From Escherichia phage F13: a stretch of 64,000 bases of DNA. The stretch lies in sequence record OP745617. One strand, 5' to 3'. Of this stretch, positions 6,320-63,613 are shown piece after piece (position 1 is the first letter of the stretch; each line of letters opens with the position of its first letter). Under the pieces are notes generated by a model. The model was not told the origin of the DNA and did no database searches. It saw only the letters and a list, made by a program, of their open reading frames with translations. A program made the translations under genes and the position numbers.

Positions 6320-6690
6320 CATTTGATACGCCTAAAATACGGTTAAAAATTAAGCGTATCATGGCTGCAGGCCGCGCCGTTCCTGGATTCCTCTTTTCCA
6401 AATTGGTACACCCTTACGTCATGATACGTCATGGTTTTTTATCCGTATCAGTGTACAACCCTTGCCGCGCCTGGCTTGTACATTAATCTTACGGATGATA
6501 CGGATAAAACTGAGCATCGTTATATATAGAATTCGAAAAATTAATTAACTCCATTTTAAAAACATTTATATTAATTTTTTTCATATCCTCATACTTATGT
6601 TAATTTATATATTTAACGTATCATCCGTAAGATATAAGTAAAAACAAAGACTTGCGGCAATACGGATGATACGTCATGATACGCTTCAAC
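6320..6690. repeat. iteron-like module: direct and inverted ATCCGTATC / GATACGGAT 9-mers flanking an AT-rich core (copy 1)
   Basis: Repeats read directly (tatccgtatca, ttacggatgatacggat, cgtatcatccgtaag, tacggatgatacgtcatgatacg); AT-rich core 6530-6615; homologous module at 22845-23135. Confidence 0.7.
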
Positions 6691-6874
6691 CAGCCAGCAG
6701 CGGCTAAGTCGTTGATTTGCATAACAAGCGGCAAAAGGGATGGATTTCTTTTATACGTATCAAACAGTACACCACGCACCACGGTCCGTTATCCATTCAG
6801 CAATATGATTTGTGTACGTTTATAGCCATAATGAACATCAATCTGCACTTGAATATAATGTCCATCCATTGTAT

Positions 6875-8095
6875 AATTCACACTATTAATTTGCACTATG
6901 GGATTTTGCACTATGAGTCAAGATTATGTAGCGATGCCTGAAGACTTTGAAGACCCGCGATTCGCAGAGCACAATCAGGCTTTATTCGATGAGTTCATTG
7001 ACCTTGTTATTCAGGGTCATGACATGCGCGCAGCTTTTGCACTAGTATTTGGAATGGAAGTTGCAACGGATAACTACACTGGCCAGCGAATCCTTTGCAC
7101 GCAACGCAATCCATACTACAAGATGCGCTTCAAAAAGCGTATGGAAGAGATGCCACTCAAGGATTTGTGGAGCGTAAAAGGTGCAATTCACAATTTGGTT
7201 AAGCTTGTTCGTGATCCAGAAGTCGCGGCGTCAGCCAAGCTTAATGCTATTCGTGAACTGAATATCATCTACGGCATCACGATGATTGATGAAAACGGCA
7301 ATAGTAAAATGGGCCGTTCCATGGACGATTTCTACAAGGATTTTGGAGAGGCGGCCAAAGAAGGTGAGCAATTCTCCCGCCACTAGCCAATTTGCACTAT
7401 AAAACGGCCCTAGAACACATTTTCTCCAATTCTAGGGCCATCGGTAATACGACGGGGAAGGTTACAAACATAAACGCGTTAGAAAGTGTATTATTATAAG
7501 TCATCTTTTAGTCACCTTACGTAACAATTTACGACCTTCAACCGTCCAATCGAACGACTCCACCAGCAGATTCGCACTATAACCTAAGACGATGCGTCCC
7601 TTCTCGTTATCGACCCGCCAACAAGTCTCGAATAGCATTCGATTTGCACTATTAACTATTGCCGCAACTCGCGTAGGATAAGCGCAATTTGAACTATGGT
7701 CGTAAAGGGATAAGGTGCGACCACTTCCGATGGACAACGTAGCGATGAGAATGAGCGTATTCATAAGCCACCAATTTGCACTATGAAAAGCGACCCCGAA
7801 GGGCCGCCATTCGATTAGATAATCTGGAAGGTATAGGATTTGTTGCCGAACTCAAAGTTCAAGCGCCCAGCTTCCTTAAGCTTCATGCGGAAGCGAATGT
7901 GCTTGCTATCCGGCAAGCCCAGCACGGCGAACGCTACGCGGACCGATTTGAACTCGCCTACACCCTCGACCATAACGCCGTTACGGGTGAGACGCTTTTG
8001 CGCCACTTCCTTATTATCCCAACTTTTTGCAATACCTTCGCTATTCGAACGGCGATGGGAAGGAGTTCCATTTTGCACTACGCAATTTGCACTAT
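6875..8095 (+). repeat. array of about 10 copies of the 12-bp motif (A/G)ATTTGCACTAT, all on the plus strand
   Basis: Copies at 6875, 6888, 6903, 7389, 7569, 7641, 7686, 7773, 8071, 8083 (some with one mismatch). Confidence 0.7.
6898..7386 (+). CDS. hypothetical protein (157-162 aa); speculative small terminase or DNA-binding protein
   Basis: ORF starting inside the first motif copies (alternative ATG at 6913); the terminase idea is only from size and the adjacent repeat array. Confidence 0.4.
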   Translation: MGFCTMSQDYVAMPEDFEDPRFAEHNQALFDEFIDLVIQGHDMRAAFALVFGMEVATDNYTGQRILCTQRNPYYKMRFKKRMEEMPLKDLWSVKGAIHNLVKLVRDPEVAASAKLNAIRELNIIYGITMIDENGNSKMGRSMDDFYKDFGEAAKEGEQFSRH

Positions 8096-9030: not shown

Positions 9031-9333
9031 ATGACTACTTTAATCTCTTCCATCCTTACTTACGACGAAGACCGTTTAACCGTTCGCTCTCTTATCGCCG
9101 CCGTTAACGCCGAACTAGAATCTAGCGCCATTAAGGTCCGCGCGGTTGCCTTCGTCGGTCTTTCCTTCGACGATATCAAGTACGCCGAACGTAGCGCCAT
9201 CCGCTTCGCGAAGACCGACGACGAAGCCGTTACCCTTATCGAGACGGTTACTCCGCGCGGCGAAACGTTAATTATCGTCGAGTATATCGACGTAGAAGGC
9301 GATAAGGCTTATAAATATTTTATCGCAAAATAA
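9031..9333 (+). CDS. small protein (100 aa), probable distant member of the same paralog family
   Basis: ATG with GGGAG RBS; 3' 200 bp of this gene is duplicated in the tandem repeat. Confidence 0.5.
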   Translation: MTTLISSILTYDEDRLTVRSLIAAVNAELESSAIKVRAVAFVGLSFDDIKYAERSAIRFAKTDDEAVTLIETVTPRGETLIIVEYIDVEGDKAYKYFIAK

Positions 9334-9744
9334 CGAAAAAGTGCTTTACTTCTTAGTACACTAAGACTATAATGTTTTATATCGAGAGGGGATGAGGTAG
9401 CGAATAGGTCGCTACCCTCCCGACTAACTAGGAGAATATTACGCGCGGTTGCCTTCGTCGGTCTTTCCTTCGACGATATCAAGTACGCCGAACGTAGCGC
9501 CATCCGCTTCGCGAAGACCGACGACGAAGCCGTTACCCTTATCGAGACGGTTACTCCGCGCGGCGAAACGTTAATTATCGTCGAGTATATCGACGTAGAA
9601 GGCGATAAGGCTTATAAATATTTTATCGCAAAATAACGAAAAAGTGCTTTACTTCTTAGTACACTAAGACTATAATGTTTTATATCGAGAGGGGATGAGG
9701 TAGCGAATAGGTCGCTACCCTCCCGACTAACTAGGAGAATATTA
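9139..9744. repeat. tandem direct duplication, 2 x 303 bp (9139-9441 and 9442-9744)
   Basis: Near-identical units read directly; each carries the gene 3' end, promoter (TTTACT-17-TATAAT at 9345-9373 and 9648-9676), leader hairpin and RBS. Confidence 0.85.
9442..9639 (+). pseudogene. promoter-less 3' fragment of gene 9031..9333 created by the tandem duplication
   Basis: Copy of the C-terminal coding part; at the junction the RBS is followed by ACG rather than ATG. Confidence 0.5.
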
Positions 9745-10034
9745 TGATCACTTTATCCGCTATCCGTGCCGCTCGCGTCGAAACTTCCGAAAACTCTAAC
9801 GTATTTGGCGAAACCTTAGAGAGCGTTTATCTCTCTAACGTTGACGCGATTATCGAGTCTATTTATGAGCCGATCAACTTCCTCGACCTTTACAAGTATC
9901 GCGATGAGGACATCGTGTCCTACCGCGTAACGATTAACGGCTTCGTTTATACGATTACCGAAATCGGCGGCGAATATCTCGCTGTACCGCAACTCGGCGG
10001 CGAAGTAACTTACTTTAAAATCGTAAGCCTTTAA
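9744..10034 (+). CDS. small protein (96 aa), paralog of 8522..8806
   Basis: AGGAG RBS; clear alignment to the 8522..8806 product. Confidence 0.55.
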   Translation: MITLSAIRAARVETSENSNVFGETLESVYLSNVDAIIESIYEPINFLDLYKYRDEDIVSYRVTINGFVYTITEIGGEYLAVPQLGGEVTYFKIVSL

Positions 10035-10419: not shown

Positions 10420-10960
10420 AGAACATCGCGTAAGTCCTTGTTTTATATAGACACCTATATCGGACCGTTAGGGCGGGTCGCGTAAGTCGTTGTTTTATAA
10501 AGGCGCAAAACTTTCCCTTCGTTCCGAACTAAAACGAGGAATATGCCGACCCTTCGTCCGAAAATAGTACGCATGCGAAATTACATGCATCTAGAATAAT
10601 CCCCACAGATATTATCCTACACGCAATCATTCGCTTTCGAATCATTATGCTTCATATTATTATGCGTCGAATCATTCGCTTTCGAATTGTAACGCTGGAA
10701 ACTGTAACGGCGATTGATTATTGCGTTCGTGTGGTTTTTATGGCATGGGTCTTTTGGTGCGTTTTGCTACTTGATGGAATTTGCGGTACACTAATCAAAA
10801 TACGACACATTTAGTCTACTAACTTTTCAAAGAAAAAGTCCTGGACAGTACCGTACTATTTTGTACCCACAGGAAATTTGCAGTACACTCCTGCGCGCGG
10901 CAGGCAAAATAAAGGGCCGCACCAAGCGACCCACGATTCACGATTCACGGTTAAAGCAAC
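10420..10960. repeat. noncoding region with several short direct repeats
   Basis: cgcgtaagtc(c/g)ttgttttata x2 (10425-10500), aatcattcgctttcgaat x2 (10628-10700), ggaa(a)tttgc(g/a)gtacact x2 (10774, 10872), cacgattcacgattcacgg (10934). Confidence 0.6.
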
Positions 10961-12507: not shown

Positions 12508-14817
12508 TTATTTTGCTGATTTCAGCGCGGCTATCTCTGCCTTGAGTTCACCTATCTGATCCATGAGTGCAAGAATAGCCTCGTGGTGCAATGCCGCTGC
12601 CACTCCGTAAGTGTCGACTGATTTGACATCCTTGACCACGGTCCCATCAGCCAGTTCCATATCACCTGAAACAGAAACGGCTTCTGGGAAATCAACCTCA
12701 ACATCTTGAGCCACGAATCCAAAACCTACTTTCGCGCCGTCAGTTTTCAATCGCCATGACACGCCATTAATCCTTTTCATCTTGGTCAATGGGTCTTGAA
12801 TCTTGACAATCTCATCCTTGATTCTGACGTCTGAAGAAGTACCCCAACCGCCAGCGCAAACAGCATTACCTGCTTGCAGGAATTGGAAATACTTGTTGGT
12901 GCCTACACCGCCAGCAGTAGTGGTCATTATGGTCACATCGCCATTACGCTCAGAATATACCCGACCATACGTTGCTGTGTTGGCACTGTTCTTAAAATCG
13001 ATGAACGATTGGTTGTTGGTGTTTCCAATGAACGTCGCTTGACCGCCGCGAGTTATCAACTGGCCTTTTGCATCAACGTTCCCAGAGCTGGTGATCAAGT
13101 TATTTGGCACAAGCAAGTTGCCGTTGTCGACAAAATCGAATGCCTGGCTGGCGGCAGTCGTCAAATTGGTAACGGTCAATCGCATGTAATAAGCGCCACC
13201 GATAACAGCGCGAATGCGCATGCGACCTTCAGCCTCAACAGCAGTCCCCACTCGATACTCCGACATGACGCTGCCGCCGTCAGCGGTCGTGCCTGGACCT
13301 GGCATTGCCGTATCGCCGTTTATAACAGACCATTGCGTATTCGCCGCTGTGAATCCACCGGATGCACGAATCACCCAAACGCCTGAAAAGTTGCGCGGCA
13401 ATACTTCATCTGTTGCAAGGTTGTTACGACCGTAAGCTGGGCTTGAGTTAGAAGCTCTTAGCGCAACGCTTCCCAAAGAGTTCGCACCAGAACTTAAAAG
13501 CGAAACACCTCTTACATATCGCGGAATGGTGAATCCTTCTCCATTGATGAATGCGCCGCCAGCACCTGCGACAACCGTTCCTGATGCTGGTTCACTTGCA
13601 GGGCCGGACCCGTGGAAGTTGATGTTGCCAGTGATGTTTGGCAGGAAGGATTCCATTATCATTCCGTCATTTGACGAGTTGCCGCCATCGCCACGGGCAA
13701 AAAGTGCACGAACACTTCCTGTCTGAACGCCGTTACGGTCTGGAACACGGAATGTTGTTGTTCCGTTGCCTAAAGAATACTTTCCGCGCTTCAGCGGGTC
13801 AGCCAACCAATCTGCATCAGCAATAGGCGTAAGCATTTGCGCATAAGCCCAAAGCTCAGGCCAGTCTGCACGGTTAAGCAATTGTCCGTCGGCAACAACT
13901 TCATACGACTGAATATAGGCGCGACTGTCGCGCAGGTGAAAGTCACCAACGCCATAGTTCATTACGCCGTTCATGCTTGGGCCAACGGTGCCAGTATTTA
14001 CTAAGTTCTCAACCCAACGCTTCGTCGCGGCATCATAATCATTGACGGGGTCGCCAGCCAGTGGTGTTGAGCCTTGTGGACGAATATTCAACCATGCTTG
14101 CGCATTGTCTGCTGATCCTGTGCCGCCCATGGAAGTTGGAACGATGCTCTGATCAGCAACAGGGCCAAATCCAAAGGCATCTTTCATTCCCTGAATAGTC
14201 GTTTGACCTGTGCCGCCGTTTGCAATTGGAATTGTGCTTTGTGAACTATAAATTTGCGCCCAAGGCGACCATGAAGATGTTTCAGCATTGTACCTTCTTT
14301 GGTACAAGTTATTTGAGTTGAATGTGGTGTATCTTTGAATGCAACTTTCCAAAGATATGGCAGTCTGCAGGACTTCCAATATCCCAGCTTCCAAGGCTAC
14401 TGGATAGTTGAGGGATGTCTGCGCAGCAGCATTTGAATATTGGTAATATTGCCCAAACCAAGTTCCAGTCAAAGAGTTCAGATTTATCCCCGACGGCAAA
14501 AGTCCAAAATTCCTGACAGTATTGGTCAAAGATGCGGCAGTTGTTCGAATGGAAAGCATGTCGCCTGCCGCCCATGCGCGCGCTGCAGTTCCTTCCTGTG
14601 CACGCTGCACAGTCAGGACGTTCCCAACCACGGCTGTTACAGTGATGATTTCAAATTGGAGGCCTGTTGCAGCGTCGACGATTGTCGCCACTACACGCTC
14701 GTTTGCACCCAAGGTCGGAAAGCCCGACCCTGAGCGGATTGTGATTGTGGTGTCTGAAGTCGTCGCTGGCTGAGCGAGCGCGACCTCAAAGTTGTTTTTG
14801 AATATTAGCCTTGGCAT
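12508..14817 (-). CDS. tail fiber or tailspike with C-terminal intramolecular chaperone (peptidase S74-like) domain
   Basis: 769 aa; C-terminus SSDVRIKDEI...GVSWRLK...GFVAQDV...LKAEIAALK is typical of the self-cleaving chaperone domain of fibers and endosialidases. Confidence 0.8.
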   Translation of the reverse strand: MPRLIFKNNFEVALAQPATTSDTTITIRSGSGFPTLGANERVVATIVDAATGLQFEIITVTAVVGNVLTVQRAQEGTAARAWAAGDMLSIRTTAASLTNTVRNFGLLPSGINLNSLTGTWFGQYYQYSNAAAQTSLNYPVALEAGILEVLQTAISLESCIQRYTTFNSNNLYQRRYNAETSSWSPWAQIYSSQSTIPIANGGTGQTTIQGMKDAFGFGPVADQSIVPTSMGGTGSADNAQAWLNIRPQGSTPLAGDPVNDYDAATKRWVENLVNTGTVGPSMNGVMNYGVGDFHLRDSRAYIQSYEVVADGQLLNRADWPELWAYAQMLTPIADADWLADPLKRGKYSLGNGTTTFRVPDRNGVQTGSVRALFARGDGGNSSNDGMIMESFLPNITGNINFHGSGPASEPASGTVVAGAGGAFINGEGFTIPRYVRGVSLLSSGANSLGSVALRASNSSPAYGRNNLATDEVLPRNFSGVWVIRASGGFTAANTQWSVINGDTAMPGPGTTADGGSVMSEYRVGTAVEAEGRMRIRAVIGGAYYMRLTVTNLTTAASQAFDFVDNGNLLVPNNLITSSGNVDAKGQLITRGGQATFIGNTNNQSFIDFKNSANTATYGRVYSERNGDVTIMTTTAGGVGTNKYFQFLQAGNAVCAGGWGTSSDVRIKDEIVKIQDPLTKMKRINGVSWRLKTDGAKVGFGFVAQDVEVDFPEAVSVSGDMELADGTVVKDVKSVDTYGVAAALHHEAILALMDQIGELKAEIAALKSAK

Positions 14818-20888: not shown

Positions 20889-21740
20889 ATGGCTTTTAAA
20901 GCTTCGAAAAAACGTGAACGCCGCTCACCCGATAGAATCGGGCGCGGCAGTCCGATAATCCCATCCAACGCAATCGCGATGGCCTATCGTCGTGAGATGA
21001 AAGGTCTTTGCTATGCGATGATTGACGACTATCAAGAAGGAATTGCTGAGTGGCTTGAAAAGAAGCAGGTGAAAAAATTCTTTGCGCAAGACTCTGCTGA
21101 TTCAACTTTTCAAACCTTGATGAAGCGACTGCAACTGAAATGGGCAAAAGCTTTCGCCCGTGTCGGGTCAAAGATTGCCGCAGATTTCATCAAGTCAGTT
21201 GAAAAGGGTGCCACTTCTGCTACATTTGCAAGTCTTAAATCTGCAGGAATAGAAGCGCCAAAAGCCACATATAATAAATTCGTTGAGAACACTCTTAAAA
21301 CAAGCGAGACGTTCAACACGACTTTAGTGACTAAGGTTGGCGAGGATATTCACAACAGGGTGTACGAAGCGGTGATGCTTTCGCTGACTTCGCCAGACCC
21401 AGCGCAACAAGGCACGTCCGGTATTCAGGCGGCATTAAGGAATGTAAAACACTTCTCTGCAAAGCGCGTAGACCTTATTGCAAAAGACCAAACGAGCAAA
21501 CTTTATTGCGTATTAAGTGATGAAAGGATGCGACAGAATGGAGTCGAGGAATTTGAGTGGGCGCATTCAGGAGCAGGCAAAGAGCCGCGAATATCGCATG
21601 AGCATGTCGATGGAATGAGATTCAAGCTTGATGACAAACGCTTATGGGAAGTAGGTGGAGAACTTAAGTTCAAAAAGGGTGACATCGGTCCTCCTGGATG
21701 GGCGATACACTGCAAGTGCAGGAAAATACCAATTATCTGA
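20889..21740 (+). CDS. head morphogenesis protein (SPP1 gp7 / Mu F-like)
   Basis: Position after portal; C-terminal HEHVDG...WAIHCKCRK motif. Confidence 0.7.
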   Translation: MAFKASKKRERRSPDRIGRGSPIIPSNAIAMAYRREMKGLCYAMIDDYQEGIAEWLEKKQVKKFFAQDSADSTFQTLMKRLQLKWAKAFARVGSKIAADFIKSVEKGATSATFASLKSAGIEAPKATYNKFVENTLKTSETFNTTLVTKVGEDIHNRVYEAVMLSLTSPDPAQQGTSGIQAALRNVKHFSAKRVDLIAKDQTSKLYCVLSDERMRQNGVEEFEWAHSGAGKEPRISHEHVDGMRFKLDDKRLWEVGGELKFKKGDIGPPGWAIHCKCRKIPII

Positions 21741-21747
21741 GGTCATT

Positions 21748-22668
21748 ATGACGATACCAATCAACACATTCCCTCTATCTGGACAAACTCCAGTCTTGCC
21801 TGCGGTGTATGCTAATGGCTTGGCAATTGTCTCAGAATTCACTTCTGATAAAAACTTGATTGTTCCACTGAGCCCGCCGCTTTCATCAGGGTATAACTCA
21901 GTAGGCCAGTTCTTTATGATTGGCAATGATGGCGATTCGACCAGCAAGCCTAATCTGACATTGTCTGTACCTAAGATGAACATCACCGACGTTCAAACTG
22001 GCTTGACTGCATCAACAATCACCATTGCTTTTGGAGAAGCAGTGATTATAGGAATGGAGTCTGGAGGGTCCAAGAATGCTGTCGCCGTTAAGGTAGTCAA
22101 ATCCAGCGACAACCAATACACTTTACCAGCTGCGACGGCTTCCGTTCTCGGCGGCGTCAAAATAGGAAGCGGAATAAGCGTCGCAGGTGACGGTACAATT
22201 AGCGTAACTCAATACTCATTGCCGATTGCGTCAGCATCTACTTTAGGCGGCGTAAAGGTCGGTACAACTCTATCAATTGATGGTTCCGGTGTGCTTAACG
22301 CAGCAGCAAGCACCGTCCAGAATGCCACGAACAGTGTTAGCAATCCTCCAACCACTTTGGTTAATCTGGCAACCTTAAACCTTCCTGCAGGAAAGTGGCT
22401 TGTGACGGCAAGCCAATTGACCGTTGCAACTGCAGGCATTCAAGCGAATACCGGAATCACTGTAAAATTATCAACAAGCAATTCAGATATTACGGATGAT
22501 GCATTTACCATGTCAGCGGGTATTCGGGCTTCAGGACGTTTTGGCGGTAACGTCCCAACAAAAATGATTACTCTTGCCGCGCCTGGTAATGTGTATCTAA
22601 ACTATCAGTGCACCGATGCGTTAACATCTACCGTTTACGGACAGATCACCGCAATTAAGCTGAACTAA
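21748..22668 (+). CDS. structural protein with internal tandem repeats (fiber or decoration-like)
   Basis: Repeats TLPAATASVLGGVKIGSGISVAGDGTISV / SLPIASASTLGGVKVGTTLSIDGSGVLNA; start at internal ATG 21748. Confidence 0.5.
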   Translation: MTIPINTFPLSGQTPVLPAVYANGLAIVSEFTSDKNLIVPLSPPLSSGYNSVGQFFMIGNDGDSTSKPNLTLSVPKMNITDVQTGLTASTITIAFGEAVIIGMESGGSKNAVAVKVVKSSDNQYTLPAATASVLGGVKIGSGISVAGDGTISVTQYSLPIASASTLGGVKVGTTLSIDGSGVLNAAASTVQNATNSVSNPPTTLVNLATLNLPAGKWLVTASQLTVATAGIQANTGITVKLSTSNSDITDDAFTMSAGIRASGRFGGNVPTKMITLAAPGNVYLNYQCTDALTSTVYGQITAIKLN

Positions 22669-22678
22669 AGAGGAAGTT

Positions 22679-22816
22679 ATGCAAAAGATTATTCAGTCAC
22701 GTTATGTTAAAGTGCGAAATATTAATTGCAACTCTTTGCTTTCTTGGAAATGGGCTGTTTATGACTCGATGTTGATTGGCGTTTTAGTGGCAGGAGTGCT
22801 ATTTAATATTCACTGA
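22679..22816 (+). CDS. possible small hydrophobic protein (45 aa)
   Basis: Short ORF with GAGGAAG RBS and hydrophobic C-terminus; not in the supplied ORF track (below its length cutoff). Confidence 0.25.
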   Translation: MQKIIQSRYVKVRNINCNSLLSWKWAVYDSMLIGVLVAGVLFNIH

Positions 22817-22844
22817 ATTCATCGGCAAAGGATTGCCGCGAGTT

Positions 22845-23135
22845 TTATACGTATAATGACGTATCATCCGTATCAAGTAAGTTGTTGTTTTCAAAAGAAT
22901 CTTACGGATGATACGGATGATACGCGTTGCCGCCGTACTATATAGGAATTCAAATAAATTAATTTAAAATTATATATCTAATTTAATTTTATTTTTTTAT
23001 AAACTCTTATATATATGAAAAGTATCCGTATCATCCGTATCATCCGTAGCACACCAGTGATAGCGCGGCTTATACACCGATACGGATAAAAATACGCCTC
23101 ATTTTATCCGTATCATCCGTATCACACTAATAAAG
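22845..23135. repeat. iteron-like module (copy 2): GATACGGAT / ATCCGTATC 9-mer arrays flanking an AT-rich core
   Basis: ttacggatgatacggatgatacg (22901-22923), gtatccgtatcatccgtatcatccgta (23021-23047), tatccgtatcatccgtatc (23105-23123); shares the 21-mer aatcttacggatgatacggat with copy 1. Confidence 0.7.
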
Positions 23136-23239
23136 GCGCGGCTATATCGGTTGTTATACATATTCAAACCATAATTATTGTTTGCCTAAGTTTTTTTCAT
23201 TAGATATAATACACAATACTTATTTGAGGGTGGATGCGA

Positions 23240-24655
23240 ATGCAAACGGCACGCGAAATTGACAAAAATGGATTCTTGACGATTATGGGTTGTCCGATTT
23301 CGTCATTTGGCATTTTTGATTATTCTGCTGGTCAAGTTGGTCTTGATGGTGATCCGAATCGCATCGTAAAAGTCTATCGCCCTGAGTCAGCGGTGAAAGA
23401 CCCCGAAGCGATAGATTCATTCAAAAATATCCCTTTCATCGACAATCACGAAATGCTTTCTGGATTTGAAGGTGATGAGGATAACACAGCACCCGAAGAG
23501 TATGGCGTTGATGGCGTTCTGACTGGCAATGTTTATTATGACAAGCCATGGATGCGCGGCGACCTTAAAGTGTTTAGCCGTCGTCTGAAGAAGGCCATTG
23601 ATTCTGGAAAGGTTGACTTGTCTTTGGGCTATGACTGTGAATTCATCATACAGTCTGGAGAGTTTGACGGGCAGCCGTATGAAGTGGTGCAGACAACTCT
23701 TCGCGGCAACCACATTGCTCTCGTGGACGTTGGTCGAGTACCAGGTGCACGGGTGCTGGATGGTCGTTGCTTTGACCATCTTTGTTTGACGACTGTAACA
23801 CCATCCAACGAGGATTTAGACATGCCAAAACCGTTAAAAGGTAAAGCGCGTGATAATGCTGTTGAACAGCTGAAATCACTGATCCCTGCGCTCGAACAAT
23901 TTCTGAACGAAGAGAGTACTGAAGCTGCTCATCAGGACGAAGTTGAAGTGAAAGCAGAAGAGAAGGACTCAACCGAAAATCGTGAAGAAGTAATGGTTGA
24001 TCCAGAAGTCAAGGCAGAAGCAGAAGAAACCCCAGAAGGTGAAGAGAAGTTTGAAGTTGAAACTGAATCTCACGCTGGCGGCGAACTTCCGCAATTGATC
24101 AGCCAAATCGAAGCACTTATTGCAAAACTGAAAGGTGGCGCGGTAGGTGATGAAGAAGAAGTTGAAGCCGAAGTCAAAGACGAAGAAGAAGTTGAAGTCA
24201 AGGCTGAAGATGTATCACCTTGCGACAAAGCTGAAGATGTGGTTAGCGGCCTGCAAAACAGCAACGTAAAGGGGGCTTCGGTCGAAAAAGATGACAAACC
24301 GACAAAAGCGGCGAAAGCGTCGCCAGGTCCAGCAAAAGGGGAACACTCAATGGCATCTGATTCAGCAGTTGCTGCTTTCTACGCTGATTCTGCTCGTAAG
24401 AATAGCCTCTACCAGCGCCTGTCTAAAGTTGTTGGTGCCTTTGATCATGCAACTATGGACTCCAAGTCCGTAGCGAAATATGGCGCTAAAAAGTTAGGCT
24501 TGAAGTGCGTTGATGGTGCTGAGTTTGACGTGGTGGATAATTATCTGCGCGGCGTTGAGCACGGTCAGAAACAGCGTGTAGTCGCAAAACAAAAGGCCGC
24601 TGCGGATTCTGCAGCAACTGACGAAGCATTTGAAGCTTGGTTGAAAGGGGAATAA
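23240..24655 (+). CDS. scaffolding / prohead protease-like protein with acidic region
   Basis: Position between head morphogenesis and capsid; long Glu-rich stretch (EVEVKAEEKD...EEEVEAEVKDEEEVEVKAED). Confidence 0.5.
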   Translation: MQTAREIDKNGFLTIMGCPISSFGIFDYSAGQVGLDGDPNRIVKVYRPESAVKDPEAIDSFKNIPFIDNHEMLSGFEGDEDNTAPEEYGVDGVLTGNVYYDKPWMRGDLKVFSRRLKKAIDSGKVDLSLGYDCEFIIQSGEFDGQPYEVVQTTLRGNHIALVDVGRVPGARVLDGRCFDHLCLTTVTPSNEDLDMPKPLKGKARDNAVEQLKSLIPALEQFLNEESTEAAHQDEVEVKAEEKDSTENREEVMVDPEVKAEAEETPEGEEKFEVETESHAGGELPQLISQIEALIAKLKGGAVGDEEEVEAEVKDEEEVEVKAEDVSPCDKAEDVVSGLQNSNVKGASVEKDDKPTKAAKASPGPAKGEHSMASDSAVAAFYADSARKNSLYQRLSKVVGAFDHATMDSKSVAKYGAKKLGLKCVDGAEFDVVDNYLRGVEHGQKQRVVAKQKAAADSAATDEAFEAWLKGE

Positions 24656-24657
24656 AC

Positions 24658-25275
24658 ATGACTTTCCAAACTAGTGTAGGCCGTCAATATACAACTGGCT
24701 TTCCTGGCGACATCGTTCGCGACGGCCCACAGCGTGGGAAGCCAGGCCGAATCGTTAGCGCCAACGACGGTGCAAACGTAAACGCCATCAGCCGTGTGTT
24801 TGGTTTTAAGGCTGACGTGTCATTAATGGGTACTGGCCAGACCAAAACCTTGGGCGCGCAGGACTTTGAAGTTGAACTGGGCGGCACCAATTACTATGGC
24901 ATCCTTGGCAACAGCAAGCGTTACGCTCTGTATGGCAACTCTACTGGTCCTTTGGGTGCCAGCATGGTTCTGCCTCAATATAGCGAAGGCGAGTTCTACG
25001 ATATGTGCACGGGCCTCGTAGTTGAAGTGTTCAACCCAAGCACCAGTCCGCAGACGCTGAACTACGGCGACCTGCTCGCTTATGTACCTAAAGGCATTTC
25101 CAGCGGTAACAACCCGAACAACTTGCCTATCGGTGCAATTATCGCCTATACTGGCTCACTGCCAACTGGCATGGTTGCCATTCCAGGCGGTATCGTGATT
25201 GACCCGACTGCTATTGCCCTTTCCGGCCCAAGCGTCCAGTCTTCCACTTATACCATTGTACAATTGACTCGTTAA
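24658..25275 (+). CDS. head-associated structural protein (205 aa)
   Basis: ATG after AAAGGGG RBS; Gly/Ser-rich; immediately upstream of capsid. Confidence 0.45.
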   Translation: MTFQTSVGRQYTTGFPGDIVRDGPQRGKPGRIVSANDGANVNAISRVFGFKADVSLMGTGQTKTLGAQDFEVELGGTNYYGILGNSKRYALYGNSTGPLGASMVLPQYSEGEFYDMCTGLVVEVFNPSTSPQTLNYGDLLAYVPKGISSGNNPNNLPIGAIIAYTGSLPTGMVAIPGGIVIDPTAIALSGPSVQSSTYTIVQLTR

Positions 25276-45045: not shown

Positions 45046-45584
45046 CGCACTTCCTGTGTCTTAACATTACCTGAAGCATCTCTTAAGGGCAGTGGATAGT
45101 AGGCCATTTGGTAGTCTGATACGCCTTCAACATGATAAAACACGATTACGTCTTTGCTGTTGATGAGCATGTTAACGACATCTGATTTATCTTCTGGAGT
45201 GAGTATGAGTGCGCCGCCTGTCCTGCTGTCTACTGCAACAGGGTATGTCTTATCGACAAGGCCGCTGTCCAATGTATTATACCTGACAACGATTTCAGGG
45301 GCATCAACTTTTGCAATTGACATTCCGAACACAAACGACACGACTTGGCGACCGCGATCATTCATTACGCACATCTTTTCCTTATCAAACCTTTCCTTTA
45401 TCACATCATATTTGTTCCAACAAAATTCGAACGATTGGCCGTTGTTAAAATATCTCGTTAATACTTTTGCATTGCTGTTTGGCGGCGTAAACATACTTTC
45501 AGCCGCTGCACTTTTGGTGAAGAACAAAACTGTCAGCATAGCCATGATGATGATCAAAACAATCTTTAAGTTTTTCGATTTCAT
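45042..45584 (-). CDS. secreted or periplasmic protein (180 aa)
   Basis: N-terminal signal-like MKSKNLKIVLIIIMAMLTVLFFTKSAAA. Confidence 0.45.
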   Translation of the reverse strand: MKSKNLKIVLIIIMAMLTVLFFTKSAAAESMFTPPNSNAKVLTRYFNNGQSFEFCWNKYDVIKERFDKEKMCVMNDRGRQVVSFVFGMSIAKVDAPEIVVRYNTLDSGLVDKTYPVAVDSRTGGALILTPEDKSDVVNMLINSKDVIVFYHVEGVSDYQMAYYPLPLRDASGNVKTQEVR

Positions 45585-51656: not shown

Positions 51657-54540
51657 CTGGATACACCTGTTTGATCACGTCAACGATGAACATGTCAATG
51701 CCTTCAAGCTTACGACCTTTCATCAGGAAGAATGCGCCGTTCCCGACGTTTTCAGCGATGTACTTCCCGTACTTCTGGAATTTCTCTGGACGAATCCTGA
51801 AGCGCATTGGCGAGTCGGTCGAGTCATCCTTGCACATAAGGTCGATGAACTGAGTCTCAAGCTTGTTCCCGTACTGGTCAAACTCTGCGTAGCGGCCATC
51901 AGCTTGAAGACCCTTTTTAAGCTTGCCGTGCTTTGTATAGATGCCGCGCTCAAGTCGTTTACGGATGCGTGTTGCTTCGTTCTCGTCCGCAAGCACTTTC
52001 TTTGTCAACTTGCCGATTACTATTGCGCGCTCGTCATCACCGACTTCCTTCATCTGGCGTATTGAAGCGCCGGACGTCACGCCAATCAGATAAGGGTCAT
52101 TATATGCCCATCCGAACTTTGTGTGCATCTCTGTCAGGTCGCCATATTTAACTTCAGCATTGGCCAATGCATCCTTCTGCTTTTGCGTTAAGGTTCCGGC
52201 TTCACGCGCTTCGATATATTTCATCGCCTTCACCATGCCGTACCCTTTCGCGTTCATGATGCCGCCGATTAGCTTTCCGTTCGCGATGGTCCAGTTCATT
52301 GAAGAGTGATCAGGGTCGATTGGCACATAATCCACGCCTTCCTTCGCAAGTTCACGTAATATCGCAATCGTCTGGTCTTCGTCCTTAGCAGCGCGTAAGC
52401 AGGCTGCGGCAAATTCCAACGGGTAGTGTCGCTTAAGCCACAAGGTCCAGTAGGTCACGACCGCGTATGACACGGAGTGTGACTTGTTAAAGCCCCATGA
52501 CCCGAACGTGGCCATCGCTTGCCAAAGCTTTCTTGCATCCGCTTCCGGTACGCCATTATTTATTGCGCCTGCAACAAAGTCCTCTCCAAGCTTGTTAAAG
52601 TATTCTTCACCCTTACGGCCTGACATTGCCTTACGTACAGCGGATGTTTTCGCCCAGTCGAATGAACCAATCTCTTTAACCACGGCCATGATTTGCTCTT
52701 GGTAAAGAAACACGCCGTAAGTCTCTTTTAGGTACGGCTCAATCTGCGGCACGTCGTACTCAATCGGCGCACGCCCTGCCGCGCGTTCAATGTATTTCTG
52801 GGCCATACCGGATGACAACGGGCCAGGTCGACCCAAAGCCGTCAGGTTGTCGATTTTGTTAAAGTTATCGACGTGCACAAAGTTTGTTACTGAGCGTACA
52901 GCGTCGCCTTCAAACTGGAAGATGCCTGACATCTTGTTTTCGTTAAGAATGTCAAGGACGCTTTGATCATCAAGCTTGATGCCGTAGAGCGTTTCAGCAT
53001 CAATAACGCCTGTATCAGAAATAATTCCGAGAGTACGAAGGCCCAACGCATCAAGCTTCAAAAGGTTAAGGTATTCGCTGTCAGGCTTATCAATTTGTGC
53101 AATCCCTTCTGCAGTTACAGTACAGTAATCAGAGATTGGGTCATTACACACAATGATTCCCGCTGCGTGAACACCTGTGTGGGACGGGTGAATCTCAAGG
53201 TCGCCCATGCAACGCGCGGCATCAGGATATTTGGCCACGAACTCTTGACCCGTGGTTGTTGTTGCAAAGGTATCCTCCAGGCCGTGACCATAACGGGCGT
53301 CACCGGATGAGTATTCAAGCAGTGCGTTTTTAATGTTGGCCGTTTCGTGGTATCCAATGTTGAACTTCTTACCAACCTGCGCCATTACTGAGTTGGCCTT
53401 AAGCGTGTTGATGTTGCCAAGCTTTGCAACGTTCATTTCGCCGTATTTCTCTTTAAGGTAATCAAACACCATGTAGCGTTTGGTATCTTCAAAGTCGATG
53501 TCGATGTCAGGAAGGTCGGCGCGGCTTACGTCGATGAATCGGGCAAACAGCAGCTTATACGGGATTGGGTCCACTTCCGTGATGCCAAGGCAATAGCAAA
53601 CAAGTGAACCAGCCGATGAGCCGCGAGCAGGACCGACGAGCATTTTTGTTTTTGCGAATCGTACAAGGTCCGCTACTACCAGAAAGTATGAGTCGAAATC
53701 TTTCAGCTGAATCTGGTGAATTTCTTCGTTGAAGCGGTCCTCATATTCCTGAGTCCATTCTTTGATGTGACCTGCTTTGAGACGGTACTCCATCCCCTCA
53801 CGCGCAAGCTTTACCATATCACCAGCAAGGTGAATAATCGGTGCCTTGCGTAATTTCAGGTCAAGTCCGACTATGCCGTTTGCTATGTCAACAGCATTGG
53901 CCGTTGCCTGATTCAGCTCATCTTCCGTCAAGATGCCTTTAAGCTGTTTGCGCAAGTCTTCCGCGTCAACGATGCAGTGCGGCTTGACCGTGTCGCGCAC
54001 TTCCCAAGCATAAGCAAAGTCAACGTGCTCAGGTGAAGGCATGTGGTTGTATCCGGTTAAAACCAGCGGCCTTCCGTTGCTGCGGTGAGCCAACACCTGG
54101 CGCTTAGCCAAAAGGAACGATGATGGGTTGACGTCTATATAATCGTAGTCCTCTGGCCGCAGCAACTCCACGGCACCGCCACAGAATTTAACGACGCCAT
54201 CGAGCGCACCGAACTCTGCACGGGTAAGCCCGCCGCGCTGCGTTGAAAGTGTTGTAGCGTTGTAAAAAGATTTTAAGTCAAGGGCCAATATCCAAGCCTT
54301 CGGTTTGAATCCCTTTTTCGGGTCCGCATCAGGGTCGATGATTGGAATCTCCATCCCAAACATAGGCTTAATATCATTTTTCTGGCATTCCTTTTCCCAG
54401 CGAACGTGACCCCATGTATTGTTATCAACTAATGCCGCGACTTCGCAGCCCAACTCTTTGAGCCGTGCTATAATTTCAGGATGCCGTCCATAAACTTCTT
54501 TGAACGTGTAACCGCTGCGAACTCTCAATTGTGGAAACAT
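51643..54540 (-). CDS. DNA polymerase III alpha-like (DnaE-type, PHP domain)
   Basis: 965 aa; N-terminal PHP; catalytic motif GPARGSSAGSLVCYCLGITEVDP...FIDVSRADLPDIDIDF. Confidence 0.9.
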   Translation of the reverse strand: MFPQLRVRSGYTFKEVYGRHPEIIARLKELGCEVAALVDNNTWGHVRWEKECQKNDIKPMFGMEIPIIDPDADPKKGFKPKAWILALDLKSFYNATTLSTQRGGLTRAEFGALDGVVKFCGGAVELLRPEDYDYIDVNPSSFLLAKRQVLAHRSNGRPLVLTGYNHMPSPEHVDFAYAWEVRDTVKPHCIVDAEDLRKQLKGILTEDELNQATANAVDIANGIVGLDLKLRKAPIIHLAGDMVKLAREGMEYRLKAGHIKEWTQEYEDRFNEEIHQIQLKDFDSYFLVVADLVRFAKTKMLVGPARGSSAGSLVCYCLGITEVDPIPYKLLFARFIDVSRADLPDIDIDFEDTKRYMVFDYLKEKYGEMNVAKLGNINTLKANSVMAQVGKKFNIGYHETANIKNALLEYSSGDARYGHGLEDTFATTTTGQEFVAKYPDAARCMGDLEIHPSHTGVHAAGIIVCNDPISDYCTVTAEGIAQIDKPDSEYLNLLKLDALGLRTLGIISDTGVIDAETLYGIKLDDQSVLDILNENKMSGIFQFEGDAVRSVTNFVHVDNFNKIDNLTALGRPGPLSSGMAQKYIERAAGRAPIEYDVPQIEPYLKETYGVFLYQEQIMAVVKEIGSFDWAKTSAVRKAMSGRKGEEYFNKLGEDFVAGAINNGVPEADARKLWQAMATFGSWGFNKSHSVSYAVVTYWTLWLKRHYPLEFAAACLRAAKDEDQTIAILRELAKEGVDYVPIDPDHSSMNWTIANGKLIGGIMNAKGYGMVKAMKYIEAREAGTLTQKQKDALANAEVKYGDLTEMHTKFGWAYNDPYLIGVTSGASIRQMKEVGDDERAIVIGKLTKKVLADENEATRIRKRLERGIYTKHGKLKKGLQADGRYAEFDQYGNKLETQFIDLMCKDDSTDSPMRFRIRPEKFQKYGKYIAENVGNGAFFLMKGRKLEGIDMFIVDVIKQVYPDGNK

Positions 54541-59860: not shown

Positions 59861-60706
59861 TTATTCCGCTTGATCACCGTCTTCGGCATTGTCGTTGGAT
59901 TCAACATCGACAAACTCGATGTGGCCCATCTCTTCCAGCTTGCTCAGGTAGGAGCGAACGGAAGCGCCAAACAGTTGATCTTTAACTTTTTCGCCCAGCT
60001 CATCGATAGACTGCGCCACGCCAACTTCGCCTTCTTTGATCGCCGCCAGAACGCGTCCACGGGTGGAATGCTCTTGCGGCTGGCTCAGGCCATTGCCGGT
60101 GTAGATGAAGTGAGTGGCTTTTGCACGACGCTGACCGTTTGCCTTTTTAGCAGCCTTGCGCTCTGCGATGGCTTTGCGACGTTCTTCAGCTTCTTTCTTA
60201 CGCTGTTCTTTCTGCTGTTCTGCAGCTTCTTTAGCCGCAATCTTAGCAGCTTCACGCTCTGCCTTGCGTTTCGCTTTAGCTTCTTCTTTGGCCTTCTCTT
60301 TTTCGGCCTTCGCTGCAGCACGGGCTTGATCACGCTCTGCTTTCTTGGCCGCAGCCTGCTCAGCTTTCAGGCGCTTGGCTTCTTCTTTAGCCTTTGCCTT
60401 TTCGATTTCTTTTGCTGCTTTAGCGGCTTCACGCTCTGCTTTCTTAGCAGCAGCCTTTTCTGCACGCTCTTTAGCTTTCTTAGCTGCTTCTTCAGCACGC
60501 TTCTGCGCCTTCTCATCAGCAGCCTGCTTGCGTTTCAGCGCAGCTTCTTCACGCTTGGCTTGTTTTTCCTGCTCACGCTTCTGGCGCTTCTCTTCGGCTT
60601 CTTTCTTTTTAGCCAGGCGTTTTTCTTCAGCCACGCGACGACGTTCTGCTGCGGCTGCTTGTTTTTCTTCTTTAGATAATACTTTGATTGCTTCGGCCAT
60701 ATTCAC
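59861..60706 (-). CDS. Lys/Ala/Glu-rich low-complexity protein with C-terminal globular domain
   Basis: 281 aa; about 190 aa of KEA-rich helix then about 80 aa of ordinary sequence; opposite-strand ORF is a shadow. Confidence 0.5.
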   Translation of the reverse strand: MNMAEAIKVLSKEEKQAAAAERRRVAEEKRLAKKKEAEEKRQKREQEKQAKREEAALKRKQAADEKAQKRAEEAAKKAKERAEKAAAKKAEREAAKAAKEIEKAKAKEEAKRLKAEQAAAKKAERDQARAAAKAEKEKAKEEAKAKRKAEREAAKIAAKEAAEQQKEQRKKEAEERRKAIAERKAAKKANGQRRAKATHFIYTGNGLSQPQEHSTRGRVLAAIKEGEVGVAQSIDELGEKVKDQLFGASVRSYLSKLEEMGHIEFVDVESNDNAEDGDQAE

Positions 60707-60859
60707 AGTCCTTAAATAAATTAGTTTATTTTATATTCCCCGTTTGGGATAACTTAATTATGCCTTCAGTTGCCGCCAGTAGCAACTAAAAACTATGGCG
60801 GCAATGCCACTTTAATTAAACTGATTTTCAGTTTTATTTTTCGTAAATTTACGTCAACA

Positions 60860-62530: not shown

Positions 62531-63613
62531 ATGGCTAGTTTAAGAGAAGAAGCAAAAATAATTGAAGAGTTTTTAACAGAACTCCAGAGAGGCATCCCAG
62601 AAGATGAGCGCGTCATGACGGTGTTTGCTCCTGAAGCAACGGTGCAGACTGACGAGCGCGGAAAGAAGATTAACAGCAGCTTCTGGCCTAAGCCTTGGAA
62701 GTTGGGCAAGCCGCTCATGCAGCACCAAAACGGCTATGCTTGCATCAGTTCAATGCGTAAGTCTCCCAACCCAAAGACGGGTGAGATGCGATACTGGCGT
62801 ACAGAGTCGGCCTTTGGTCACGGTATGGCGATGATGGTCGACGACATCGGTCACGGTAAAGGGTCCAAAGGCGATTTAGATTTGGAATTCTTTTTTGAGC
62901 GACTGAAGCCGACTGTCATCGTCGAGACTTCACCGAACAACCACCAGCTTTGGTACTTCTTTAAAGAACCGATTGACCATCTTATTCAGTTCAAAGCGTT
63001 CCTTGGGTCTTTCGTTAACATGGTACTCAAGAAGGGCGGCGACAACACGATTAAAGACGTAACGCGCGTGGGCCGTGTTCCTGGGTGCATCAATAACAAG
63101 CGTGTGACTCACGACGGCCCCTATAAATATGTCGATGAGAACGGCGACCCGTTCCGCTGCCGACTTGTCCATGCAGACTACTCCTTGCGCTACACCATCG
63201 AAGACATTTGTCACGCATTTGGCTTTCACGTCGTCATGCCGCAAAAGCGTGAGATTCAAATTGACGTCGATGAATACAAGTATGATGCCGTTTGGTATAA
63301 AATAGCCCAGCAGATTCTGGCGCGCAACAAGATGGGTGAAGGGTCTGATGGCGACGTCATCGAGAATATGTCAGGCAAGTGCCGCATAATCTGTCCTTGG
63401 GGTGAAGAGCACACCAACGGCGACCCGTATGGCGCGTACTTTCGCGGCCCTATCCCTGGTGCAGAACATGAATTTGTGTTCGGTTGCGCCCACGACTGTC
63501 ACCGGAAAGGGGAAGGCAAGAAAGGTTGGACTGCTTTTGTTGAAGCAATCGTCATGCCTTATATTGAGAATCAACTTGACATGATAAATCGTCGTGCAGG
63601 TGGCATAAAATAG
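62531..63613 (+). CDS. primase-like protein (AEP / prim-pol-like core with C-terminal Cys/His cluster)
   Basis: 360 aa; acidic MMVDDIG, ETSPNNHQLWYFF, RVGRVPGCINNK, and CPWGEEH...CAHDCH. Confidence 0.45.
   Translation: MASLREEAKIIEEFLTELQRGIPEDERVMTVFAPEATVQTDERGKKINSSFWPKPWKLGKPLMQHQNGYACISSMRKSPNPKTGEMRYWRTESAFGHGMAMMVDDIGHGKGSKGDLDLEFFFERLKPTVIVETSPNNHQLWYFFKEPIDHLIQFKAFLGSFVNMVLKKGGDNTIKDVTRVGRVPGCINNKRVTHDGPYKYVDENGDPFRCRLVHADYSLRYTIEDICHAFGFHVVMPQKREIQIDVDEYKYDAVWYKIAQQILARNKMGEGSDGDVIENMSGKCRIICPWGEEHTNGDPYGAYFRGPIPGAEHEFVFGCAHDCHRKGEGKKGWTAFVEAIVMPYIENQLDMINRRAGGIK

Follow-up and report, generated by a model that had tools for sequence, protein, structure and literature searches.

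What is an array of short repeats around a very AT-rich stretch doing among the head genes of a phage, and why is it there twice? The question is raised by module 2 (22845-23145) of the window, by which we mean the whole 64,000-nt stretch that was analyzed, and by its relative, copy 1 (6320-6770). The window is from an Escherichia Wifcevirus of the SP13 type: over 22000-25000 it matches Escherichia phage vB_EcoM_SP13 at 100% identity and 27 other Wifcevirus records at 94-98%, among them WFC, WFH, FEC19, ECML-117, Mansfield, and Bas98-101. The Wifcevirus phages are virulent myoviruses of ~68 kb and distant kin of the Pseudomonas Pbunavirus (PB1-like) phages. The Wifcevirus literature that we searched has no mention of the module, and in the literature searched there is no description of a replication origin or packaging signal for either Pbunavirus or Wifcevirus. 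We present the module as an iteron and AT-rich element of the origin type, the homologous DNA being known so far, in the literature searched, only as a putative promoter or "AT-rich boxes" (PMC3008698). Our preferred reading, to which we give a probability of about one half, is that module 2 is a putative bidirectional replication origin recognized by a protein of the phage; that a protein binds there, that the DNA melts, and that replication initiates are things we infer from its anatomy and its relatives. The features of module 2 and its surroundings are the following.

21655-22668, head-fiber-like gene (Pfam Phage_head_fibr; annotated as a tail fiber protein in Bas98)
22679-22816, 45-aa ORF between the head-fiber-like gene and module 2
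22823-22848, plus strand, terminator-like hairpin CGGCAAAGGATTGCCG and then the T-run CGAGTTTTAT, left border of the spacer
22835-22839, plus strand, outer GCCGC box, left polarity
22849-22877, plus strand, outer-left array of three 9-10-bp units, ACGTATAATG ACGTATCAT CCGTATCAA, with the D2 repeat copy at 22860-22875
22898-22924, minus strand, inner-left array, inverted, TACGGATGA twice plus TACG, holding the 21-mer common to copy 1
22929-22933, plus strand, inner GCCGC box, left polarity
22938-23022, no strand, AT-rich core of 85 bp with about 9% GC, candidate DNA-unwinding element
23024-23050, plus strand, inner-right array of three tandem 9-bp units, ATCCGTATC ATCCGTATC ATCCGTAGC, right arm of a 22-bp inverted repeat
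23065-23069, plus strand, GCGGC box, right polarity
23079-23087, minus strand, single inverted unit GATACGGAT
23106-23123, plus strand, outer-right array of two tandem units
23138-23142, plus strand, outer GCGGC box, right polarity
23182-23210, plus strand, sigma70-type promoter of the protease-scaffold-capsid operon, TTGCCT-17-TATAAT, 10/12 match
23234-24655, head maturation protease gene (by annotation), right of module 2
6441, 6497, 22866, 22910, 23024, 23033, 23079, 23106, and 23115, the exact copies of ATCCGTATC

The repeats are nearly private to the two modules. All 9 exact copies of ATCCGTATC in the 64 kb are within them, as are 12 of the 13 copies of the 8-mer CGTATCAT and 18 of the 34 copies of GATACG/CGTATC. 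The sequence-only reading had noticed a 21-mer, AATCTTACGGATGATACGGAT, identical in both modules, and it does occur exactly twice, at 6485 and 22898, and never in 100 shuffles. The units of module 2 follow one another without gaps every 9 bp (in one case 10 bp). The three tandem units that had been placed at 23021-23047 form a real array, but its coordinates are ~3 bases off, 23024-23050 being correct, and the third unit is imperfect (ATCCGTAGC); likewise the inverted units put at 22901-22923 are real but were drawn about 3 bases off, the two TACGGATGA units being at 22903-22920. The inner arrays together make a perfect 22-bp inverted repeat, 22903-22924 with 23027-23048, and on the right side the outer array plus the next GCGGC box repeats the composite unit 23033-23070 at 84% identity (D1). 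What these arrays flank is, as had been claimed, an AT-rich core: ~22938-23022 contains the lowest-GC 80-mer of the 64-kb window, at 8.7% versus 46% overall, and the next lowest is in the copy 1 core, at 12.5%. An alignment of the two copies, which the sequence-only reading had proposed, gives about 73% identity and reaches into the AT-rich cores (TATATAG(G)AATTC..AAATTAATT, T-run), so the modules are paralogs and not just alike in composition. A blastn-short search with module 2 against the window matches copy 1 only, giving no third copy, and the 4.8 kb of the SP13 genome that is absent from the window has none of the repeats. Host DnaA boxes and GATC sites are found in neither module; a consensus search finds no IHF or Fis sites in module 2, and one IHF and two Fis matches in copy 1.

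The other element of the layout is a strand-polar pentamer. In all six modules (two in the window, two in Serratia phage SMP, and one each in Pseudomonas phage HTN4 and Xanthomonas phage FoX6), GCCGC is confined to the left side of the core and GCGGC to the right side, a polarity seen at only 1.4-2.7% of random centers per genome. The box consensus, reading outward from the core, is ~YGCGGCW. The pentamer as such is not enriched (4.8 per kb genome-wide). The boxes may be strand-specific loading or priming signals, and because no consistent hairpin was seen by eye around them, we make no claim of an ssi-type signal.

The sequence-only reading had let its case hang in part on conservation in related phages, and the module is kept in Wifcevirus, Myosmarvirus, Pbunavirus, and FoX6. 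Across 10 Wifcevirus genomes, the DNA from the AT-rich core to the protease gene (alignment columns ~262-600) is almost without substitutions, and the adjacent 45-aa ORF and terminator-like region are variable; the sole length changes are one 9-bp unit missing in Bas101, the length of a T-run, and a TA dinucleotide. In six Pbunavirus contigs, the core and boxes are more conserved than the flanking coding DNA, the spacer sample here being six loci from a scan of IMG/VR. The spacer 5' of the protease gene is 470-515 bp in SMP (Myosmarvirus) and HTN4 (Pbunavirus), and what these phages share with the window is the layout: an AT-rich core between inverted arrays, whose repeat is particular to the genus, with GCCGC on the left and GCGGC on the right. 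The repeat is TACTTTTCGTTT in SMP, unrelated in sequence to that of Wifcevirus, and GGTAATTTGGA / TCCTAATTTCC in HTN4, again unrelated. Serratia phage MTx also has this layout 5' of its protease gene. FoX6 (Carpasinavirus) has no spacer 5' of the protease gene. Its single module, at 53514-53986, belongs to the early/replication gene block and is directly 3' of gp77, the primase-helicase gene, so the element that sits among head genes in the window abuts gp77 in FoX6; at least six GGCGTTATTTAA-type units, some in each orientation, flank the lowest-GC 80-mer there. Repeat clusters are genus-specific in SMP, HTN4, and FoX6, and no 80-mer in any of the three genomes is lower in GC than the equivalent core. 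When IMG/VR was scanned with ACGGATGATACGGAT, multiple matches came only from Wifcevirus-type contigs, including one metagenomic contig of 68.5 kb, and the others were single and at chance level.

A separate observation concerns Pbunavirus, where two genomes have coordinated changes in a left box, CTACTGCCGC[A/G]AG, and a right box, CT[T/C]GCGGCAGTAG. In the HTN4 locus, the covarying boxes are at 2540-2588 and 2781-2829, and their inverted-repeat symmetry is kept across ~210 bp. It is a single covarying pair, hence a single event, which could reflect pairing or gene conversion.

The number of copies differs among these phages, with one in HTN4 and FoX6 and two in the window and SMP. The second module of SMP, at 45381-45525 upstream of terS, is partial, with a 37-nt stretch 89% identical to the protease-side copy. 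The second copy is restricted to two genera that have long direct terminal repeats (DTRs), Wifcevirus and Myosmarvirus (terminal repeats of about 3.56 kb in the latter), and is absent from Pbunavirus and FoX6. Since the layout of module 2 is found at the same locus in relatives and is the sole copy in Pbunavirus, module 2 is, on this comparison, the ancestral, syntenic copy, and copy 1 is a lineage-restricted extra at the DTR boundary. The sequence-only reading had suggested a "second origin" for module 2; an origin is what fits the anatomy and the comparison best, and "second" is wrong, module 2 being the ancestral one.

With regard to transcription, module 2 is inside a spacer, without annotation in Bas98, that is bounded on the left by the terminator-like hairpin and on the right by the sigma70 promoter. 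The terminator-like hairpin at 22823-22848 would close the upstream head operon. The promoter at 23182-23210, with a predicted start at about 23217, is 24 nt 5' of the protease start codon, adjoins module 2 while lying outside it, and is unchanged in the alignment of 10 Wifcevirus genomes. A second Wifcevirus subgroup has a different sequence at the equivalent of 22823-22848, in which a stem and T-run were judged by eye.

As an origin, module 2 would work in the following way. A genus-specific, phage-encoded DNA-binding protein would load cooperatively on the contiguous 9-bp units, which stand as inverted arrays on both sides of the 85-bp, ~9% GC core. Its binding would lead to melting of the core, aided by negative supercoiling behind the strong outward-firing promoter, and the phage helicase and RepB-type primase would then start synthesis outward. 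The GCGGC boxes, with 5'-GCGGC-3' on the strand leaving the core, may mark the two arms for strand-specific loading or priming. The window does encode a RepB-type primase (62531-63613; Pfam RepB_primase, E = 4e-36), and a separate primase/helicase is annotated just outside the window in the SP13 GenBank record.

Several points favor this reading. The repeats are confined to two modules whose cores are the most easily melted DNA, and the strand-polar boxes are symmetric about the core. The repeats differ by genus while the layout stays constant, as would be expected if the sites co-evolve with a binding protein. The element is insulated from transcription, with a strong promoter firing away from it, and in FoX6 it adjoins the primase-helicase gene. 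Other points speak against an origin. It is unusual for an origin to lie within a head-gene cluster and at a distance from the replication genes; module 2 has neither host DnaA boxes nor IHF sites; and gapless spacing of 9-bp units is atypical for classical iterons. Also, copy 1 holds the genome terminus and adjoins terS, a pointer toward packaging. Both GC skew and its cumulative form track gene orientation, with no inflection of the origin type at either module.

For a putative origin of this kind, the closest known system is oriL/oriR of Bacillus phage SPP1, two distant modules in which initiator boxes lie beside an AT-rich stretch and both of which are bound by the replisome organizer G38P; one of the two origins lies among late genes. 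The window phage likewise has two distant repeat and AT-rich modules, one of them among late genes. The SPP1 boxes, however, lie as direct repeats to one side of the AT-rich stretch, whereas the window modules have inverted 9-bp arrays on both sides, strand-polar GCGGC boxes in addition, and one copy at the genome terminus. The oriV of the IncQ plasmid RSF1010 has iterons, an AT-rich region, the priming signals ssiA and ssiB on opposite strands, and the RepB' primase that uses them, and is matched here by iterons, AT-rich DNA, dyad-arranged strand-specific signals, and a phage primase of the RepB family; its iterons are 20 bp as against 9 bp here, and around the GCGGC boxes we recognized no conserved hairpins of the ssi kind. 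In satellite phage P4, ori and crr contain octamer iterons bound by the alpha primase-helicase, and both regions are needed for replication. The window has in common with P4 short iterons of 8-9 bp in both orientations, two separate cis regions, and a phage primase-helicase annotated as a D5/VirE-related type, but relatives of the window phage manage with one copy where P4 needs both.

The practical interest is that Pbunavirus is among the genera most used in Pseudomonas phage therapy, and the PB1-like group includes Wifcevirus. A defined cis-element would tell genome engineers which non-coding DNA to leave unaltered, would give a handle on the initiator protein, and would permit phage-dependent amplification vectors. 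For engineering of this kind, in vitro assembly already works with vB_Eco4M-7 (PMC11074155). The more unusual point is the duplicated copy at the left DTR boundary in two genera, a link that offers a testable entry to how long direct terminal repeats are generated.

That copy is also where the rival that survives best has its strength. The features needed are these.

6320-6770, no strand, copy 1, paralogous module with the same repeats, AT-rich core, and GCCGC/GCGGC polarity, upstream of terS
6371 and 6464, GCCGC boxes of copy 1
6654, 6700, and 6728, GCGGC boxes of copy 1
6832-6877, consensus-like promoter downstream of copy 1, reading away from it
6898-7386, terS, directly downstream of copy 1 (PDB 7uxe "Small terminase", E = 6e-34; annotated TerS in Mansfield)

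The left physical end of the genome, the start of the DTR, is at 6552|6553; it falls within the copy 1 core, 7 bp off the dyad center of the inverted repeat there. Base 1 of SP13, WFC, WFH, Ro157lw, and Mansfield, five GenBank records with DTRs of 3.7-3.9 kb, is window position 6553; the Mansfield terminal repeat of 3,673 bp is annotated as a PhageTerm prediction. The right end of the terminal repeat is window position 10755 (..GGCATGGGTCTTT|TGGTGC), and there is no iteron module in 10625-10755. Ahead of the right end, AATCATTCGCTTTCGAAT occurs twice in direct orientation, at 10625-10642 and at 10670-10687, and TGTAACG also twice, repeats that could be a recognition signal for that end. In Myosmarvirus, the DTR starts of MTx and MyoSmar correspond to SMP ~45447 and ~45433, on the left border of the AT-rich core in the partial second copy. 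A cut-site motif common to Wifcevirus and Myosmarvirus, ACTCC|ATTT, came under consideration and was taken as coincidence, because the DTR starts of MTx and MyoSmar are 13-27 nt to the left of the motif and 14 nt apart from each other.

In protein-binding terms, SPP1 pacL-pacC-pacR and lambda cosN-cosB have repeats that flank a cleavage site beside terS, and copy 1 resembles them in having repeats on both sides of the left genome end, beside terS. The rival explanation is that the modules are terminase or packaging sites, at which the small terminase or an accessory protein would bind the arrays flanking the core as at SPP1 pacL/pacR, copy 1 being the site that is cut and module 2 a second loading or regulatory site that serves as pac in headful relatives. 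We consider this unlikely for the element as a whole. The five records that begin at one base of the copy 1 core, the Mansfield prediction, and terS immediately downstream all speak for it, as do the partial second copy with DTR starts at its core edge in Myosmarvirus, the other DTR genus, and the lack of a second copy in Pbunavirus and FoX6. Module 2 is another matter. It differs from SPP1 pac and lambda cos in having no known terminus and in being away from terS, by about 16 kb. Neither GenBank records nor PhageTerm results place an end at module 2, even though copy 1 has fewer and less perfect arrays, and the cut context in copy 1, AACTCC|ATTTT, has no counterpart in module 2. The ancestral copy is present in relatives for which no fixed ends were detected: Pbunavirus genomes are reported to be circularly permuted and terminally redundant, phage Banzai (Pbunavirus) gives no significant PhageTerm terminus peaks, and TerS of E217 (Pbunavirus) did not bind DNA to any appreciable extent in vitro. 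These Pbunavirus data make it less likely that the ancestral copy serves in packaging. In FoX6, moreover, the element that abuts the primase-helicase gene is ~2.9 kb from terS.

The two roles could also be joined in a dual replication and packaging device, which we regard as rather improbable. An origin copy upstream of terS would set the left end in the genera with DTRs of 3.6-3.9 kb, and module 2 would stay the main vegetative origin. If the copy 1 origin fired on the concatemer, the terminal repeat would be doubled locally, and terminase would cut the left end on one arm of the bubble and the right end on the other. If true, this would explain how the terminal repeat is regenerated in long-DTR phages.

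A regulatory array is the next alternative, and a doubtful one. As activator, repressor, or insulator sites for sigma70-type promoters, the repeats would set the timing or level of expression of terS and of the protease-scaffold-capsid genes. Cooperative repressors of the ribbon-helix-helix type typically have contiguous short tandem units such as these as their sites, a phage that lacks an RNA polymerase of its own needs some control of sigma70-like late promoters, and both copies have consensus-like outward promoters 60-90 bp downstream (23182-23210 and 6832-6877). But the arrays and core are 60-350 bp upstream of the -35 hexamer with no overlap with the promoter, and an 85-bp core of ~9% GC with symmetric arms exceeds what a regulator needs. 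Such an array is found at only one Pbunavirus promoter, where phage 14-1 has 26 sigma70-like promoters, and the FoX6 element is downstream of the primase-helicase gene, with none upstream of the protease gene.

The remaining questions are whether the AT-rich core itself contains a promoter, or whether the repeats act as a non-coding RNA or transcript hairpin. Both are very improbable. The core promoter has been predicted before: in the PB1-like phage JG024, the AT-rich core upstream of ORF22 (the protease gene) is given as a sigma70 promoter or "AT-rich boxes" (PMC3008698), which is DNA homologous to the module 2 core, described without the repeat arrays, their symmetry, or a second copy. That prediction is not borne out by mapping in Pbunavirus 14-1 with ONT-cappable-seq, where the sole transcription start site (TSS) in the homologous spacer (about 12.8-13.2 kb) is that of P014, of sigma70 type, at 13257, further downstream. 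The sequence upstream of P014, TATTGTTCCGCTTATTTACC..GTATATAATACAGCCA, corresponds in position to the window promoter 23182-23210; the preceding TSS on the same strand is at 9247, and the 14-1 tables have no TSS and no termination site inside the repeat/AT-rich element. A sigma70 scan of 22845-23135 gives at best 9/12 (ATGAAA-17-TATCAT), with fewer matches than shuffles lead one to expect. Because the sole mapped 14-1 start comes from the homolog of promoter 23182-23210, module 2 is not the promoter, and the proposal of the sequence-only reading that the module could be a late promoter falls away: the promoter is a separate element, outside the 22845-23135 it had described.

For a structured RNA there is the strong folding of the inverted repeat, the inner-left arm as ssDNA having a hairpin z = -6.3. 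An Rfam covariance search gives no family, with just one chance match, MIR812, with 29.5 bits where the gathering score is 80 (E = 0.29). Well as the arms fold, a required hairpin or cruciform is unlikely, because the arm symmetry is not kept: a unit is missing from the left arm alone in Bas101, and a change in Mansfield is uncompensated.

Least credible of all is a functionless relic of a miniature mobile element, with inverted terminal repeats around AT-rich filler in two copies per genome, since the module is syntenic in three genera without alignable repeat sequence, is near-invariant and more conserved than flanking coding DNA, gives multiple IMG/VR matches in Wifcevirus-type contigs only, and has no target-site duplication that could be seen by eye.

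Aside from the origin reading, the terminal repeat and the SP13 record have some features of their own. Within the terminal-repeat region, ~9150-9755 is a 303-bp tandem duplication with 296/303 positions identical, and an alignment offset suggests that the SP13 GenBank record has one copy fewer. At the internal junction where the right-hand DTR copy starts (~2484 of the segment), the SP13 record reads CTCCAATTTT and the window CTCCATTTT; the extra A is exactly at the terminus position, 6552-6553, and may be an artefact of assembly or end repair. The SP13 record also has, at 60386-60822 and outside the window, 436 bp without an annotated gene, downstream of the primase/helicase gene and its neighbor, with ordinary composition (44% GC) and no iterons. 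Finally, the motif TTTGCACTA / TAGTGCAAA is found just before terS (6890-6915) and again, clustered, within the terminal repeat at 7643-8087, and may be a separate regulatory motif.
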